DNA of 64,000 bases from a phage: assembly GCA_024875585.1 (NCBI GenBank), contig GCA_024875585.1_4107.1; one strand, 5' to 3'. The position numbers were made by a program, and so were the translations under genes. Of the stretch, positions 3,439 to 17,485 are shown piece after piece (the stretch's first letter is position 1; every line of letters begins with the position of its first letter). Under the pieces are notes generated by a model. It saw only the letters and a list, made by a program, of their open reading frames with translations, did no database searches and was not told where the DNA came from.

Positions 3439-3466
3439 TTGACAATAGATTATAGTACTGTATAAT
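3439..3466 (+). promoter_or_regulatory. sigma70-type promoter (TTGACA-N16-TATAAT)
   Basis: TTGACA 3439-3444, TATAAT 3461-3466. Confidence 0.6.
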
Positions 3467-3485
3467 AGTTTACATCAAGGGCGAC

Positions 3486-3528
3486 GGGAAGTTTTAAAAA
3501 CTTCCCTATAGGGAGAATAGTTCTCCCC
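3486..3528 (+). promoter_or_regulatory. tandem 5' leader hairpins (GGGAAGTTT-TAAAA-AACTTCCC and GGGAGAA-TAG-TTCTCCC)
   Basis: two perfect inverted repeats in leader; same pair at 5580-5623 and 9763-9804. Confidence 0.6.
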
Positions 3529-3548
3529 ACTAACAGAGAGAAAACAAA

Positions 3549-3761
3549 ATGGCTAATATCTGCACTGTACTGAAAAATGCAAAACAAGTTTTATTTTCTG
3601 ATCACGATCATTTAAACAAGGATATTACTGGCGTTCGGAATATCAAAGATGTAAAACGTGTTATGGGTATCTATTGCAATATGAAACGTGTCGGCACGTT
3701 CGGTAATAAATTTCTATACCAGGCGGGGGATTACAATTTTACACTGACTATCATTAACTAA
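3549..3761 (+). CDS. hypothetical protein (70 aa)
   Basis: ORF+SD after structured leader. Confidence 0.7.
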   Translation: MANICTVLKNAKQVLFSDHDHLNKDITGVRNIKDVKRVMGIYCNMKRVGTFGNKFLYQAGDYNFTLTIIN

Positions 3762-5532: not shown

Positions 5533-5560
5533 TTGCAATTAGTTTTTAGTACTGTATAAT
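5533..5560 (+). promoter_or_regulatory. sigma70-type promoter, class I
   Basis: TTGCAA / TATAAT; two leader hairpins 5580-5623. Confidence 0.6.
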
Positions 5561-5640
5561 AGTTTACATGAAAGGCAACGGGAAGTTTAAAAACTTCCCT
5601 AAAGGGGGAAATGATTCTCCCCACTAAGAGGAAAGAAAAA

Positions 5641-5853
5641 ATGCAAGGTCAACTAATCGTTCGTAAATGGTCTGATACTAATGAAAAACCGTGGGATGTA
5701 CAATACATCGGACCGGATGGGGTATCACGTTATCAGCCAGGCGTAACGCATAGTACTGAGCAATATGCCGCCGCTCATCGTGAACGCCTGTTAGAATCTA
5801 TGCAACAGGGTTTAGGTGAAAAATTCATTCAAGATCATTGGCTGAAAGATTAA
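5641..5853 (+). CDS. hypothetical protein (70 aa)
   Basis: start moved from 5611 (inside hairpin) to ATG after SD AAGAGGAAAG. Confidence 0.65.
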   Translation: MQGQLIVRKWSDTNEKPWDVQYIGPDGVSRYQPGVTHSTEQYAAAHRERLLESMQQGLGEKFIQDHWLKD

Positions 5854-5860
5854 AAAGTAC

Positions 5861-5888
5861 TTGTGTAGTATAGAAAATAAAGTATAAT
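5861..5888 (+). promoter_or_regulatory. sigma70-type promoter, class I
   Basis: TTGTGT / TATAAT; leader hairpin 5902-5918. Confidence 0.55.
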
Positions 5889-5939
5889 GTTTAATACAGG
5901 AAGGGGAATAGTTCCCCTCCTAACAAAAAGGAAAGTAAC

Positions 5940-6113
5940 ATGATTCATGTAGAATTGTCAGTACTGAGAGATTTGTTTTATCGGATGGGTACTACTGGCG
6001 AATATCCGAAGGGTGATACTGCAAAACTTTTTGTATCTCTCGACTTATGGCAACGCGAACAATTAGTAATGTCGTGGCGTAAAGGTAAAGCAGATCGCGA
6101 GGTGAAAGCATGA
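5940..6113 (+). CDS. hypothetical protein (57 aa)
   Basis: ATG after SD AAAAGGAAAG; below cutoff. Confidence 0.5.
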   Translation: MIHVELSVLRDLFYRMGTTGEYPKGDTAKLFVSLDLWQREQLVMSWRKGKADREVKA

Positions 6114-6259
6114 AAGAATTTTTATTCGAAGTAGTTTTTATTGGTGTAAGTAGTCACCAATTGATTCGCTCAAGTGGTTATAATGTTTGCCAGGCATGGA
6201 ATAACATTAAACAAATGTACCCGAACGCTATCACATATCGCAACCCAAAACAAGTTTAA
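6110..6259 (+). CDS. hypothetical protein (49 aa)
   Basis: ATGA overlap with previous ORF; below cutoff. Confidence 0.4.
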   Translation: MKEFLFEVVFIGVSSHQLIRSSGYNVCQAWNNIKQMYPNAITYRNPKQV

Positions 6260-6269
6260 AAATAATTAA

Positions 6270-6362
6270 AAAAAGGATTGACTTCGGTCAGTCCTTTTTG
6301 CTATTATATATTCATTGAGAGATAGCTCACTGACCCATAGGGTGCGGAAGTGTATCTATTAT
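6270..6362 (+). repeat. repeated intergenic element copy 2
   Basis: hairpin GGATTGAC-TTCG-GTCAGTCC carries a compensatory pair change relative to copy 1. Confidence 0.65.
6274..6299 (+). terminator. rho-independent terminator
   Basis: stem + TTTTTG. Confidence 0.6.
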
Positions 6363-6412
6363 ATGCTGGTGGGTGTATTATCTAGTACTGAAAACTATTT
6401 GATAAAAAGTAC

Positions 6413-6440
6413 TTGCATTGTACTTAGAATCAAGTATAAT
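6413..6440 (+). promoter_or_regulatory. sigma70-type promoter, class I, with no ORF downstream
   Basis: TTGCAT / TATAAT; followed by ~80 nt without ORF before the next promoter. Confidence 0.5.
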
Positions 6441-6446
6441 GTTTTA

Positions 6447-6525
6447 CATCAGGACGGGGAACGAAATAAGTAAATCCCTGTTAAGTAGCCCAGGAGTAAG
6501 GCATACGAAAAACTCCCCTGATAAA
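6447..6525 (+). ncRNA. candidate small RNA or leader-only transcript
   Basis: promoter-driven ORF-free segment with GGGGA...TCCCC pairing potential. Confidence 0.25.
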
Positions 6526-6530
6526 ATAGT

Positions 6531-6559
6531 TTGACAATAATTTTAAGTACTGATAAAAT
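6531..6559 (+). promoter_or_regulatory. sigma70-type promoter, class II (second copy)
   Basis: TTGACA 6531-6536, A/T-rich -10. Confidence 0.5.
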
Positions 6560-6591
6560 AATCACATCAACTACTGATAAGGAAACATAAA

Positions 6592-6867
6592 ATGCGGGTT
6601 CTTCTGACAGCTAACGAAATCGAGCAAGTACTTACTACTAACCTGGAACAATGGAAACGTGAAGCAGATATCCAGGCGGTTCAATTGTTAAATGAGAAGT
6701 TAACGCCGGATGATTTAAGTAAGATTGTAGATCCTCAATTCTACGAAGATATTCACGACACCGCGTTAAGCGTCGAGGATGTACTAGATAAGCACTACAT
6801 TGATACTAATTTACAGGGTTACGGTCGTAAAAATTTTATTACTATTCACGACATTTACAATAATTAA
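6592..6867 (+). CDS. hypothetical protein (91 aa)
   Basis: ORF+SD TAAGGAAACA. Confidence 0.7.
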   Translation: MRVLLTANEIEQVLTTNLEQWKREADIQAVQLLNEKLTPDDLSKIVDPQFYEDIHDTALSVEDVLDKHYIDTNLQGYGRKNFITIHDIYNN

Positions 6868-6870
6868 GTA

Positions 6871-6898
6871 TTGACAAAGTATCTTAGTACTGTATAAT
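6871..6898 (+). promoter_or_regulatory. sigma70-type promoter, class IV (GTATTGACAAAGTATCTTAGTACTGTATAAT)
   Basis: TTGACA / TATAAT; leader hairpin 6913-6931. Confidence 0.6.
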
Positions 6899-6952
6899 AG
6901 TTTACATCAAGTGAGGGGAATGGTTCCCCTCCTAACAAAGAGAGAAATAAAA

Positions 6953-7135
6953 ATGGCTAAGTGCACTATCTGTAAGAAAGAAATCGTATTAGTTCCAAGT
7001 GCCCGTGAGCGTGCCGCTCGGTTCGGTGGCAAAGCGTCAGACTATACAAAAATGTTTACTACTCATGCAAATTGCCAGGTAGCAAAACGTTCACAAGAAA
7101 GCGTAGAATTAATGCGTAAACTTTCCAAAAAATAA
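6953..7135 (+). CDS. small Cys-containing protein (60 aa), possible zinc-binding
   Basis: start moved from 6911; MAKCTICKK...HANCQ. Confidence 0.6.
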   Translation: MAKCTICKKEIVLVPSARERAARFGGKASDYTKMFTTHANCQVAKRSQESVELMRKLSKK

Positions 7136-7138
7136 GTA

Positions 7139-7166
7139 TTGACAAAGTATCTTAGTACTGTATAAT
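7139..7166 (+). promoter_or_regulatory. sigma70-type promoter, class IV (second copy)
   Basis: near-identical to 6868-6900; leader hairpin 7181-7200. Confidence 0.6.
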
Positions 7167-7221
7167 AGTTTACATCAAGTGAGGGGAAACGGTTCCCCTC
7201 CTAACAAAGAGAGAAATAAAA

Positions 7222-8058: not shown

Positions 8059-8083
8059 GGCGGGATCTGTTCCCGCCTTTTTT
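8059..8083 (+). terminator. rho-independent terminator
   Basis: GGCGGGA-TCTGT-TCCCGCC then TTTTTT. Confidence 0.75.
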
Positions 8084-8098
8084 ACAGGATAAACTAAA

Positions 8099-8353
8099 AT
8101 GATTAAGGTAAAACTATCTAAAGATAATATCTTGCGGGTACACTATAAAGCCCCTCAGAGAATCATCACAAAGGCCGTACAGCTTGCGAATGAGTTTATT
8201 AATGGTAATCTATTACCTAGGAAGTTAAGCAACGGAAAACTGCGTGTAATCGATGTAGACACTAACAACAGAATAGTAATAGAGAATACCGGAAAGATAA
8301 ACCTATATGAACACCAACAATATAATAAGAAAATAAAACTAATTAGTCGTTGA
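8099..8353 (+). CDS. hypothetical protein (84 aa)
   Basis: ORF+SD AGGATAAACTAAA. Confidence 0.65.
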   Translation: MIKVKLSKDNILRVHYKAPQRIITKAVQLANEFINGNLLPRKLSNGKLRVIDVDTNNRIVIENTGKINLYEHQQYNKKIKLISR

Positions 8354-9274: not shown

Positions 9275-9372
9275 TAAAAAAGGGATTGACTCCGGTCAGT
9301 CCCTTTGCTATTATATATTCATTGAGAGATAACTCACTGACCCATAGGGTGCGGGAGTGTATCTATTATATA
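9275..9372 (+). repeat. repeated intergenic element copy 3
   Basis: hairpin GGGATTGAC-TCCG-GTCAGTCCC + conserved tail. Confidence 0.65.
9282..9307 (+). terminator. rho-independent terminator
   Basis: stem + TTTG. Confidence 0.55.
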
Positions 9373-9407
9373 AGTATTGAGTACTGAAAACTATTTTTAA
9401 AAAGTAC

Positions 9408-9435
9408 TTGCAATGTACTTAGAATCAAGTATAAT
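9408..9435 (+). promoter_or_regulatory. sigma70-type promoter, class I
   Basis: TTGCAA / TATAAT; leader hairpin 9450-9468. Confidence 0.6.
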
Positions 9436-9714: not shown

Positions 9715-9742
9715 TTGACAAAGTATCTTAGTACTGTATAAT
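9715..9742 (+). promoter_or_regulatory. sigma70-type promoter, class IV
   Basis: TTGACA / TATAAT; two leader hairpins 9763-9804. Confidence 0.6.
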
Positions 9743-9826
9743 AGTTTACATCAAGGGCAACGGGAAGTTTTTAAAACTTCCCTATAGGGAGAATAGATCT
9801 CCCCGATACTAAAAGGAAACAAAAAT

Positions 9827-10294: not shown

Positions 10295-10322
10295 TTGCAT
10301 TGTAGTTAGATTAACGTATAAT
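10295..10322 (+). promoter_or_regulatory. sigma70-type promoter, class I
   Basis: TTGCAT / TATAAT; leader hairpin 10337-10353. Confidence 0.6.
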
Positions 10323-10373
10323 GTTTTATATCGAGAGGGGAAATGGTTTCCCCTCAAGTCCAGGAGATACACA

Positions 10374-10637
10374 ATGAACACTATCGAAATCACTATCAAT
10401 GCTCACGTATACGACAACGTAGTACTGCAAACTACTATGACCGCTAATGATACCAGAACTTTGCGGAATACTGTTATAAGTGCCGTATGTGCTGCAATTG
10501 GTGATGTATCCCTGGAAAATGCAGAACATATCAACAACGGTTTCACTATGTGCAAACGTGATAACGCAAAACATATCATCGTAGAAGGTTACGGCGGTGT
10601 AGAATATAATCTTTATATGAAAAAAGTACTTGCATAG
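10374..10637 (+). CDS. hypothetical protein (87 aa)
   Basis: ORF+SD CAGGAGATACACA. Confidence 0.7.
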   Translation: MNTIEITINAHVYDNVVLQTTMTANDTRTLRNTVISAVCAAIGDVSLENAEHINNGFTMCKRDNAKHIIVEGYGGVEYNLYMKKVLA

Positions 10638-11564: not shown

Positions 11565-11660
11565 AATAAAAAGGGATTGACTCCGGTCAGTCCCTTTGCT
11601 ATTATATACGCATAGACAAAAACTAGCCCACAGGGTGCATAGGTGTATCTAAAATATATA
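11565..11660 (+). repeat. repeated intergenic element copy 4 (diverged tail)
   Basis: same hairpin as copy 3; downstream half partly diverged. Confidence 0.55.
11573..11598 (+). terminator. rho-independent terminator
   Basis: GGGATTGAC-TCCG-GTCAGTCCC + TTTG. Confidence 0.55.
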
Positions 11661-11716
11661 GTTAATAACGGTGAGTAACCATCTGCTGGTGGAGTGAAAA
11701 CTATTAATAAAAAGTA

Positions 11717-11799: not shown

Positions 11800-12132
11800 A
11801 TGAGTACTTCAATCGCTATCGTTAAAGCTTTCATCCGTACCAACGTTTCATCTGTATTCATTGACGGATTGGATCGGGAAGTAGAATACTCAATCATTAT
11901 CGCACAAACGGCAAACGGTGCTCGGTACATCCTTAATGATAGTGAAGCAAATCACTACTACTTCACTAAAGCCACTGGCTTTAAACGCATCGATGCTGAT
12001 GTAGTATACGCTAAGATGAATAAGCTGGTAGATAAGATTAACACTAAAGGTACTATCGATTTACAGTACTGGACCGAAACCGATCCAGAATATGGATCTC
12101 ACCGCTACCTGAATCCAGGTATTAAAATGTAA
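11800..12132 (+). CDS. hypothetical protein (110 aa)
   Basis: start moved from 11764 to ATG after SD TTAGGAGATACACAA. Confidence 0.65.
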   Translation: MSTSIAIVKAFIRTNVSSVFIDGLDREVEYSIIIAQTANGARYILNDSEANHYYFTKATGFKRIDADVVYAKMNKLVDKINTKGTIDLQYWTETDPEYGSHRYLNPGIKM

Positions 12133-12138
12133 AAAGTA

Positions 12139-12167
12139 CTTGTGTAGCACTTAGATTTAAGTATAAT
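12139..12167 (+). promoter_or_regulatory. sigma70-type promoter, class I
   Basis: TTGTGT / TATAAT; leader hairpin 12182-12200. Confidence 0.6.
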
Positions 12168-13954: not shown

Positions 13955-14166
13955 TTATTCTAGAAAAATCATATCAATATACTGAACGCATCGCTGCCAG
14001 ACAACTTGAAATCCTCATAATATACGAAGAGACTTCTGATTTAAACTTAGCCGAGGTATTGGAAAATGAAATACTTTTGGGTGCATTCTTGGGAACAGAC
14101 TATCAGGAGTATTATGAGGAAAAGTATTTGTCATCTCTTGAGAAATACGTCAGGAGCAAACTATGA
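13951..14166 (+). CDS. Family A small paralog
   Basis: FLGTDYQEYYE; ATGA overlap. Confidence 0.65.
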   Translation: MIILEKSYQYTERIAARQLEILIIYEETSDLNLAEVLENEILLGAFLGTDYQEYYEEKYLSSLEKYVRSKL

Positions 14167-15608: not shown

Positions 15609-15823
15609 GAAAATTAATAGGTTACGAATATGTTAAGCTTCTGAAAACCTGTAGTATTAGCAGGGTAAAGATTCAATCTGATAAGAGTATTCCTGTTGAA
15701 CTAAAGTACGCAATGATGGCTGAACTTTATGTAGGTGCACTATTGGGGACAAACTATCAACAAATGTATGTAGACCTATGGGTTGACGCACTACTGAAAG
15801 AGGTCCAAAGTAAATGCAAATGA
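15605..15823 (+). CDS. Family A small paralog
   Basis: LLGTNYQQMYV; ATGA overlap. Confidence 0.65.
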   Translation: MRKLIGYEYVKLLKTCSISRVKIQSDKSIPVELKYAMMAELYVGALLGTNYQQMYVDLWVDALLKEVQSKCK

Positions 15824-16035
15824 TTCATTTATCTTACTATGAATATCAAAAACGTTTAAATGCATCAAGGGATATAAGGATTAAAATCTACAATAACAAA
15901 AGATTGAAATCTGAAGCCAAAAAAATCAAAATGATAGAAGCTGAATTATGCAACTTCCTTGGGACGAACTATCAGGATGATAAGGTAACAAACTATCTTA
16001 GAGAACTAATGATTAGTATCAAGAGTAAATGTTAG
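15814..16035 (+). CDS. Family A small paralog
   Basis: FLGTNYQDDKV. Confidence 0.6.
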   Translation: MQMIHLSYYEYQKRLNASRDIRIKIYNNKRLKSEAKKIKMIEAELCNFLGTNYQDDKVTNYLRELMISIKSKC

Positions 16036-17274: not shown

Positions 17275-17485
17275 TGAATATCATAAGATTGTAATGAAAA
17301 CTAATAGTGCAATTTCTAAAAAATCAAACCCAAAGTACATACTGGAACACACATTTGAAGAACGTCAATTAGCTTTAGTTGAAGCAAAACTTCTTGCACT
17401 ATTAGGAACAAACTATCAGGAAGAATACATCAGAAAACTAATATACCTTTTAACTAAACACATCAGGAAAAGAAAAAAAGCATGA
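17243..17485 (+). CDS. Family A small paralog
   Basis: LLGTNYQEEYI. Confidence 0.6.
   Translation: MLKNLKILTVNEYHKIVMKTNSAISKKSNPKYILEHTFEERQLALVEAKLLALLGTNYQEEYIRKLIYLLTKHIRKRKKA

Follow-up and report, generated by a model that had tools for sequence, protein, structure and literature searches.

The put RNAs of phage HK022 (putL and putR) are cis-acting anti-terminators of ~70 nucleotides (nt) that are structured, contain no open reading frame (ORF) and are located just 3' of early promoters used by the host RNA polymerase (PMC9378689). In T4-type phages, promoter-early stem-loop (PeSL) cassettes mediate the recombination by which modules are gained, lost and exchanged (PMC2839356, PMC4122927). 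Here we describe an element, denoted Y, in a 64,000-nt stretch of phage DNA (hereinafter, the window; GenBank assembly GCA_024875585.1, contig GCA_024875585.1_4107.1), where a complete promoter is followed by a short ORF-less stretch and then directly by a second promoter. Our reading of this locus, to which we give a probability of about one half, is that it is a gene-less early transcription cassette in which Y is an RNA maintained by selection. The parts of the locus are as follows.

6413-6440, + strand: promoter 1 (class I in the earlier note on this DNA), with −35 TTGCAT at 6413-6418, a 16-nt spacer and −10 TATAAT at 6435-6440
6448-6522, + strand: RNA core of Y, 75 nt, conserved and with the same predicted fold in all 14 variants
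6523-6530, + strand: AU-rich tail AAAAUAGU between Y and the next −35, with no terminator found
6531-6559, + strand: promoter 2 of gene 6592, with −35 TTGACA (6531-6536) and a TG-extended −10 TAAAAT (6554-6559) separated by 17 nt
6592-6867, + strand: downstream gene of 91 amino acids (aa), phrog_14947, product of unassigned function, not part of Y

A BLAST search with positions 6444-6528 identified Y at 105 places in 45 phage records that belong to three lineages. Genomes of the Asteriusvirus type carry two copies ~10 kilobases (kb) apart, both inside a terminal repeat of ~21 kb that contains the early-gene array, and records that include both terminal repeats show 3-4 copies. Copy A lies ~3.7 kb and copy B ~14.2 kb from the left genome end; the window copy is B, and copy A would be located just upstream of the window start. 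Single copies are present in the Justusliebigvirus phages muut, outra and EmilieFrey and in the Vequintavirinae phages A73, W70, A7_1 and A5-4. The 38 copies that we extracted comprise 19 distinct sequences. The window copy, at the B locus, shares 96% identity with A-type copies vs ~91% with B-type copies, and copies A and B appear to exchange sequence within genomes.

The boundaries of Y are sharp. The −10 box ends exactly 7 nt before AUCAGG in 38/38 copies, despite the presence of 10 different promoter sequences; the likely start of transcription is A6448 (range 6446-6448). At the other end, the TTGACA −35 starts 4-5 nt after GAUAAAA in every copy (14 nt in the A7_1 type), and the conserved block stops at this −35 of promoter 2. 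The flanking genes and promoter spacers differ from copy to copy, the genes 3' of Y being phrog_14947, phrog_5162, phrog_13850 and DUF7249, plus an extra gene in 121Q. Both promoters described in the earlier note are real by these comparisons. Promoter 1 has a −35 and a −10, its context AAAAAGTACTTGCA...GTATAATGTTTTACATC also heads other gene cassettes in the window, for example, those at 9408 and 10295, and a promoter of this type precedes all 38 copies; promoter 2 (TTGACA-17-TAAAAT) leads into a short hairpin-less leader, after which come the Shine-Dalgarno sequence AAGGAAA and the start codon ATG at 6592. A generic promoter scan, with 71 matches vs 51 expected in shuffles, is weak evidence on its own; the case is strong because the cassette context repeats and a promoter of this type is conserved in 38 copies elsewhere.

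The persistence of Y stands out against the fluidity of its surroundings. Y is intact at two loci in every Asteriusvirus-type record examined, the sole damaged copy being in a record flagged UNVERIFIED. PBECO4 has an extra gene (gp247) between promoter 1 and an upstream ORF-less element, X (see below), an additional gene separates promoter 2 from the homologue of gene 6592 in 121Q, and promoter 1 itself has been swapped at Y loci while Y stays whole.

The earlier note proposed secondary-structure prediction for the transcribed stretch. The 14 variants tested all have one minimum-free-energy fold in common, a closed three-way junction (z values of −1.2 to −3.6), for which an RNAalifold consensus was also made; the window copy folds with −20.1 kcal/mol (z=−2.3). 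The predicted structural elements are the following.

6448-6453 with 6517-6522, + strand: helix P1, AUCAGG pairing with CCUGAU, formed by the first and last six nt and holding the presumed first transcribed nt
6455-6480, + strand: leader-type hairpin P2, GGGGAA...CCC, with stem 6455-6460 paired to 6475-6480 and variable loop 6461-6474
6485-6506, + strand: candidate pseudoknot stem S1, GUAGCC at 6485-6490 pairing with GGC-A-UAC at 6500-6506
6493-6516, + strand: helix P3, GGAG at 6493-6496 pairing with CUCC at 6513-6516, all positions invariant

The P2 loop contains AAGUAA in all variants. The S1 consensus across copies is GUAGYC with GRC-A-YAC, the loop that it encloses, CAGGAGUAA, holds the Shine-Dalgarno-like AGGAG at 6492-6496, and S1 and P3 are separated by GAAAAA (6507-6512), an invariant A-rich linker. 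If S1 forms, then, in the folding model, S1, P3 and this linker would make up an H-type pseudoknot stacked on P1. When S1 was enforced, the energy was 0.2-3 kcal/mol above the minimum in 6/7 variants and 6.4 kcal/mol worse for EmilieFrey, which has a C-A mismatch. The sole covarying pair (46:58), located in S1, is C-G in 6 distinct sequences, U-A in 7 and the C-A mismatch in EmilieFrey.

The distribution of changes along Y is strongly non-uniform. Across 18 aligned distinct sequences, the P2 loop is variable at 11/14 columns and contains indels, vs 10/63 variable columns elsewhere (Fisher p=1.2e-5). Among these 10 variable non-loop columns, three reflect the length of G/C runs (two gap columns and one, G vs A in muut, displaced by an extra G); in another two, located in the P2 stem, a C opposite G is changed to U, which keeps the pairs only in the + strand RNA, and two are the covarying pair. 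The remaining three change freely: A/G in the junction before S1, C/U in the 3' strand of S1 and A/C in the A-rich linker. The variation looks constrained and pair-preserving. With ~60 near-invariant nt next to a near-saturated loop, Y is more suggestive of a tertiary fold or an extensive interaction surface than of a short seed or a few protein-binding motifs. Taken together, these features make it probable that Y is a functional RNA element.

A conserved block could also be a DNA-level element, such as a protein-binding site or a replication origin. Y is indeed well conserved and has three AAGTA-like motifs, and a promoter next to AT-rich DNA is loosely similar to the transcription-primed origins of phages. 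However, the G-C to G-U changes preserve pairing only in the + strand RNA, and the spacing of the AAGTA motifs shifts with the loop indels. This possibility and that of a micro-peptide, which is considered next, are the least credible explanations.

The earlier note described ~80 nt with neither an ORF nor a start codon, and this description holds. The mechanical ORFs over 6441-6530 are only 6418-6534 (+), with a TTG start inside promoter 1, and 6449-6565 (−), and there is no conserved frame: the copies of Y are 75, 77, 78, 79 and 80 nt long, and because these lengths differ by 1-5 nt, no reading frame is common to them. The same note was mistaken in reporting that a Shine-Dalgarno sequence is lacking, given that there is a strong AGGAG at 6492-6496, plus UAAGG; only the start codon is missing. 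In none of the copies does a start codon follow AGGAG, and the expected AUG position reads AUA/ACA or ACG. A micro-ORF, AUA CGA AAA ACU CCC CUG AUA AAA UAG, or the variant with an ACG start, was considered and rejected: no copy has a start codon at the required position, and the copies do not share the frame. The combination of a conserved frame, a start codon and a ribosome-binding site that marks a protein-coding micro-gene is not found in Y. In favor of a micro-peptide, some annotation pipelines call a 31-aa ORF across Y. However, the ATG of this ORF is that of TATAATG, inside the −10 box and 5' of the presumed transcription start, without a Shine-Dalgarno sequence, and its frame is disrupted in the 75-78-nt copies. 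This ORF looks like an over-annotation.

This call recurs in permissive annotations. A 31-aa “hypothetical protein” is annotated exactly over copy A as JP4_CDS0265 (record L024, 668-763), WPEC5_CDS0062 (L025, 12257-12352) and M2K_0213 (L027, 10646-10741), as well as in record L023 (10261-10356).

If Y is a selected RNA, the course of events would be as follows. The host RNA polymerase with sigma-70 would start at about A6448 and produce the ~75-nt Y RNA, which would fold into a compact, closed structure, with its ends paired in P1, the leader hairpin P2, the AGGAG paired with CUCC in P3 and S1 probably giving a pseudoknot. With no terminator, transcription would continue over promoter 2 into the early genes beyond, and Y would form the 5' domain of the resulting transcript. 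Having originated from a leader and a ribosome-binding region minus the ORF, Y would now be under selection as an RNA and would pass between phages in the form of a small cassette.

The order terminator, promoter, Y is found at both Asteriusvirus copies and at the Vequintavirinae copies, each of which heads a transcription unit, and a terminator or any other defined 3' end after Y was found in 0/38 copies. This arrangement, with a terminator before the promoter and none after Y, favors a cis-acting 5' RNA domain, a role that we assign to Y tentatively. Given that no copy has a terminator, read-through is expected; exclusively long transcripts extending into gene 6592, which the earlier note considered to be incompatible with its proposal, would be compatible with a role in cis. 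With modest confidence, we propose that Y acts in cis at the head of an early unit, where it would either modify the polymerase that made it, resulting in processive anti-termination as with the put RNAs of HK022, or shield the 5' end of the read-through transcript as a protective domain. Within the unit that begins with the window copy of Y, gene 8099-8353 starts 20 nt after an intrinsic terminator at 8059-8077 (GGCGGGATCTGTTCCCGCC followed by TTTTTT), and because there is no promoter between the two, some read-through is needed there. The same arrangement of terminator and gene is found in vB_Ec-M-J (15793-15832). That Y is specifically a put-like anti-terminator, a proposal made by analogy, we nevertheless regard as unlikely.

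Alternatively, Y could act in trans. In this case, it would be cut from the read-through transcript in the AU-rich tail and, as a stable small RNA, sequester a factor that binds sites resembling a ribosome-binding site or GGA; the candidates are CsrA, ribosomal protein S1 or the 30S subunit, a RegB-like nuclease and a phage protein that binds leader hairpins. Within the tail (6523-6530), AG|UUU fits the RNase E motif and is a possible endonuclease site. Consistent with such a role are the strong early promoter, the presence of up to four copies of Y per packaged genome, the predicted pairing of the 5' end, which should stabilize the RNA, and the occurrence of AAGUA-type motifs three times in Y. 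There are also two invariant CAGGA motifs, CAGGACG at the 5' end and CAGGAGU in the S1 loop, which resemble the CsrB repeat, CAGGA(U/C/A)G. Furthermore, outside Asteriusvirus, the distribution of Y is sporadic and accessory, as is typical of host-takeover or anti-defense cassettes. Against this stand the lack of a terminator or a defined 3' end in every one of the 38 copies and the ~60 near-invariant nt, which exceed the needs of a two-site protein sponge. Moreover, antisense targets in the window do not exceed chance (a single 12-mer, complementary to the variable loop, and 7 10-mers vs 5.2 expected from shuffling), and a BLAST search of 5,426 E. coli genomes, insensitive for short seeds, found no similarity. 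On balance, action in trans seems rather unlikely to us. The suggestion of the earlier note that the stretch may encode a small RNA stands in part. Y is not a deletion scar private to this genome; its sharp boundaries, its presence in three lineages (45 records) and its pair-preserving variation, with the loop as the variable part, speak for a functional RNA. The intrinsic terminator or 3' end of its own that a classical small-RNA gene has is missing in all 38 copies.

Whether Y matters only to the gene that follows is a further question for which the read-through is relevant. Under this explanation, the tandem promoters boost or time the expression of gene 6592, and Y is merely its long, structured 5' untranslated region. 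With no terminator, transcripts from promoter 1 must enter gene 6592, and the genes 3' of both Asteriusvirus copies have hairpin-less promoter 2 leaders. Yet, the gene 3' of Y varies between copies, the promoter 2 leader has a hairpin of its own in outra, A73 and A7_1, and the conserved block ends at the promoter 2 −35, which makes this explanation very unlikely. Y is also difficult to interpret as a cis riboswitch or a translational operator: AGGAG is not followed by a start codon, a promoter precedes the next ORF, and that ORF differs between copies.

The earlier note observed that the stretch resembles the usual leader hairpin with an insertion and raised the possibility of a leader whose gene was deleted. 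The resemblance holds, and the deletion looks right as far as the origin is concerned. The 15 nt that open Y, AUCAGGACGGGGAAC, also open an ordinary leader of phage inny (AUCAGGACGGGGAACGGUUUCCCCCUCC; the inny_203 leader), Y carries the UCCAGGAG ribosome-binding-like segment, and its 3' end, UGAUAAAAUAG-TTGACAAT, is the usual stop-codon/promoter junction of these arrays. The second-best match of the covariance model of Y (denoted R1) in the window is the ordinary leader with the ribosome-binding site of gene 10374 (UCCAGGAG...). Comparison of related loci shows how the cassette enters a genome. Between gp231 and gp232 (a DUF7249 protein), phi92 has an intergenic region with one promoter and a leader. 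The outra counterpart is ~115 nt longer, and the extra segment, consisting of a −10, Y and a −35 plus spacer, sits inside the resident promoter, so that the order is resident −35 and spacer, −10, Y, new −35 and spacer, resident −10-proximal leader, gene. In inny, a protein-coding cassette occupies the spot where outra has Y, and the insertion contexts differ between Justusliebigvirus and Vequintavirinae. Most likely, judging from these sequences, Y arose from a leader-RBS-ORF cassette (RBS, ribosome-binding site) after the loss of the ORF and now moves as a small cassette by recombination within promoter sequences. Such insertion inside a resident promoter would explain why Y always precedes a promoter. 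The tandem promoters noticed in the earlier note are thus real as an arrangement, whereas a function of their own is not needed: the outra-phi92 comparison indicates that they are best explained as a by-product of the insertion.

Among the records that match the gp231-gp232 region, several are labelled as phages of Campylobacter, Pseudomonas or Serratia (MG065639 and relatives; OR584014; OK210077), with ~91-95% identity to Justusliebigvirus of E. coli. Either these host labels may be unreliable or the phage distribution may be unexpectedly wide.

An origin by deletion also invites the neutral explanation, namely, that Y is the footprint of a deleted ORF (leader, ribosome-binding site, a few codons and stop), an empty or “selfish” cassette that has spread by easy recombination and whose RNA is inert. 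The 15 nt of normal leader, the segment resembling a ribosome-binding site and the 3' end at the stop/promoter junction all fit this possibility. Cassette shuffling by promoter recombination is documented for the T4-type PeSLs (PMC2839356), and the covariation support for the structure is thin. In contrast, a relic would not be expected to remain undisrupted at two loci in every Asteriusvirus-type record examined while whole genes come and go, with the only damaged copy in the UNVERIFIED record, nor to vary in a strongly non-uniform, pair-preserving manner, nor to stay intact where the adjoining promoter spacers have been replaced or have diverged, nor to have been gained by other phage subfamilies in different insertion contexts. 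We consider it improbable that Y is such a relic.

Several observations weigh against the interpretation of the locus as a gene-less cassette with a selected RNA. There is a promoter directly 3' of Y and most genes of the array have their own promoters, so that an anti-terminator is less obviously needed, and Y has no detectable similarity to HK022 put. We infer the existence, the start and the ends of the Y RNA from the sequence. Covariation is limited to a single pair, both states of which are linked to a third nearby site, and copies A and B apparently exchange sequence; therefore, the covariation may reflect one event, and EmilieFrey breaks the pair. Because P1, P3 and most of P2 never vary, covariation speaks neither for nor against them. 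Folding of the read-through RNA up to the next start codon gave a diffuse minimum-free-energy fold in which P2 and P3 persisted but P1 was lost. Finally, the high identity between lineages may mean recent transfer rather than selection. Across lineages, the nearby DUF7249 gene shows 66-80% nt identity vs 85-97% for Y, a comparison that is weakened by the separate insertion in outra. The use of DUF7249 as a linked neutral clock was dropped, given that in outra Y was placed next to the resident DUF7249 gene separately.

A DUF7249/phrog_871 gene is located 1-4 genes downstream of Y in three lineages. The covariance model detected no Y in 80 DUF7249/phrog_871 loci from IMG/VR, and this association is probably positional. 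PHROG and Pfam assignment of the proteins encoded next to Y yielded only PHROGs of unknown function or a DUF, with no functional hint, and no Pfam family matched the product of gene 6592.

Y appears to be a previously undescribed, narrowly distributed candidate phage RNA. No Rfam 15 family matched anywhere in the window at the gathering thresholds, and in a permissive search of 6380-6600, the best scores were 17.3 bits (Lnt, threshold 55) and 16.7 bits (threshold 90), with E of 2.6-3.9, that is, at chance level. ARAGORN found no tRNA or tmRNA gene in the window. A hammerhead-like reading of CUGAUAA and CGAAA was rejected because its elements are wrongly ordered and none of the Rfam ribozyme models yields a score. 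Scans of IMG/VR with exact and degenerate patterns recovered phage 121Q only, a metagenome scan recovered Asteriusvirus-like contigs only, and a scan of 185,579 bacterial and archaeal genomes found no match. Given the lack of a host-genome match, Y is not a copy or a mimic of a host sequence at detectable similarity. In searches of the literature on Asteriusvirus, phAPEC6, fEgEco12, non-coding RNAs of jumbo phages and phage small RNAs, we found no description of Y.

The genomic setting of Y is an array of early genes. The ~50 phage records that match window positions 5800-7200, at 85-92% identity, are nearly all from E. coli and Salmonella jumbo phages of the PBECO4/121Q group, genus Asteriusvirus, and by these matches the source phage is a relative of Asteriusvirus. 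The first ~12 kb of the window is a + strand array of small genes, almost each with its own sigma-70-type promoter and, mostly, a GGGGAA...UUCCCC leader hairpin that is followed by a Shine-Dalgarno sequence and ATG. In the annotation of vB_Ec-M-J, this array lies inside a 21.5-kb direct terminal repeat, outside of which the genes are dense and lack individual promoters; altogether, more than 20 promoter and stem-loop units between small genes were found in positions 1-12 kb of the window and the 21.5-kb repeat of vB_Ec-M-J. For fEgEco12, a terminal repeat of ~21 kb has been demonstrated by restriction mapping (PMC13070987).

The leaders in the array are not uniform. Cassettes at 3439-3530, 5533-5620 and 9715-9810 have a two-hairpin leader, GGGAAGUUUUAAAAACUUCCC followed by GGGAGAAUAGUUCUCCCC, compared to one hairpin in ordinary cassettes, and these may represent a further leader variant produced by cassette recombination. 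The protein encoded by the window ORF 346-570 is 87% identical to A73_33 of a Vequintavirinae phage (record L002, 1677-1904), and A73 and outra have units of promoter and hairpin of almost the same type as the window. A single pool of cassettes seems to feed the early arrays of these coliphage groups.

Promoter 2 in the window (spacer ATAATTTTAAGTACTGA, TAAAAT with TG) differs from that in nearly all other Asteriusvirus B-locus copies (spacer ATAGAAAGTAAACGAG, −10 TATAAT) in a comparison with records L006, L008, L010, L017 and L022; a similar TAAAAT-type promoter 2 is present in one other fetched copy. The co-occurrence of this unusual promoter with an A-like Y suggests local gene conversion or cassette replacement at the window locus.

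Upstream of promoter 1, the following two features precede Y.

6270-6299, + strand: intrinsic terminator with a 13-bp stem and a T run, closing the preceding unit, with an embedded −35 TTGACT at 6278
6311-6392, + strand: X element, a long imperfect hairpin 3' of the terminator-embedded promoter TTGACT-18-TATTAT (6278-6307)

The same terminator module is present in the window at 2863, 9279 and 11570. X is an ORF-less repeat found at 2863-2990, 6270-6400, 9279-9390 and 11570-11700 in the window and at 3440-3600, 10353-10480, 12020-12150, 14011-14140 and 17286-17400 in record L022. Its layout is a terminator stem with the −35 TTGACT, 17-18 nt, TATTAT or CATAAT and then an imperfect hairpin of ~80 nt; positions 6262-6412 fold with z=−5.2, and an alignment over 8 copies shows the invariant core CCCA..GGGTGC...TGTA.CTA. 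X precedes both Asteriusvirus copies of Y but is also found without Y. X may represent a further small RNA or, alternatively, an insulator that combines terminator and promoter.

If functional, Y would be an unannotated RNA gene that is active in the first minutes of infection across a whole genus of 350-kb coliphages, some of which were isolated as candidates for therapy or biocontrol; the present annotations skip it or mis-call it as the 31-aa protein. It would also imply that the mobile early cassettes of large virulent phages carry RNA cargo besides small proteins. With its 75 nt, a strong promoter and the host polymerase, Y offers a compact system for RNA-based control of transcription or capture of host factors outside the lambdoid phages. 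Conversely, if neutral, Y would be a clean example of an empty cassette that persists and spreads by promoter-to-promoter recombination. The most far-reaching outcome, in which Y is a new nascent-RNA element that acts directly on the E. coli RNA polymerase, has no sequence relationship to put and travels between virulent coliphages in a 115-nt promoter-inserting cassette as portable terminator-proofing, or else a new small ribozyme or ligand fold, we consider a long shot.

Among the described systems, the put RNAs are similar to Y in size (~70 nt), in the lack of an ORF, in the presence of two copies per genome that each head an early unit and in the terminators located downstream (PMC9378689). 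They differ in structure, with two long stem-loops in put compared to the predicted three-way junction or pseudoknot in Y, and only Y is followed at once by another promoter on its 3' side. A search of HK022 positions 20-32 kb with model R1 and filters off, which tests the relationship in one direction, gave no match better than E=0.25 and none in the PL/PR region. The resemblance between Y and put is one of position and putative function only, an analogy and not homology. The PeSL cassettes, similarly to those with Y, combine a strong sigma-70-like early promoter with a stem-loop that is repeated between small non-essential genes in plastic regions, and both show insertion or replacement of modules at the junctions (the promoter in phi92, outra and inny; the extra genes in PBECO4 and 121Q). 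However, PeSLs are regulatory joints between ORFs, whereas the Y cassette has an RNA as its whole cargo; furthermore, the phages with Y are not T4-type, and Y and the leader hairpins lack U tracts and are probably leaders rather than terminators.

Sponges of the CsrB/RsmZ type and the 5' stabilizer of the early RNA of Bacillus phage SP82 share with Y the presence of GGA or AGGAG in or near hairpin loops without a start codon, not far from where an abundant transcript has its 5' end. Unlike GGA-motif sponges, Y has only two such motifs, and its conservation extends far beyond them. The closest relatives of Y by sequence are the ordinary early leaders, such as those of the window cassette at 10295 and of inny_203, which have the same AUCAGGACGGGGAAC start, the GGGGAA...CCCC hairpin, the UCCAGGAG segment and the UGAUAA junction. 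Y differs from these leaders in the enlarged hairpin loop and in the lack of a start codon and an ORF, as well as in the invariant segments GUUAAGUAG and UAAGRCAYACGAAAAA, which create the predicted S1, P3 and P1 pairings, and, in contrast to such leaders, it is conserved as a unit across lineages.

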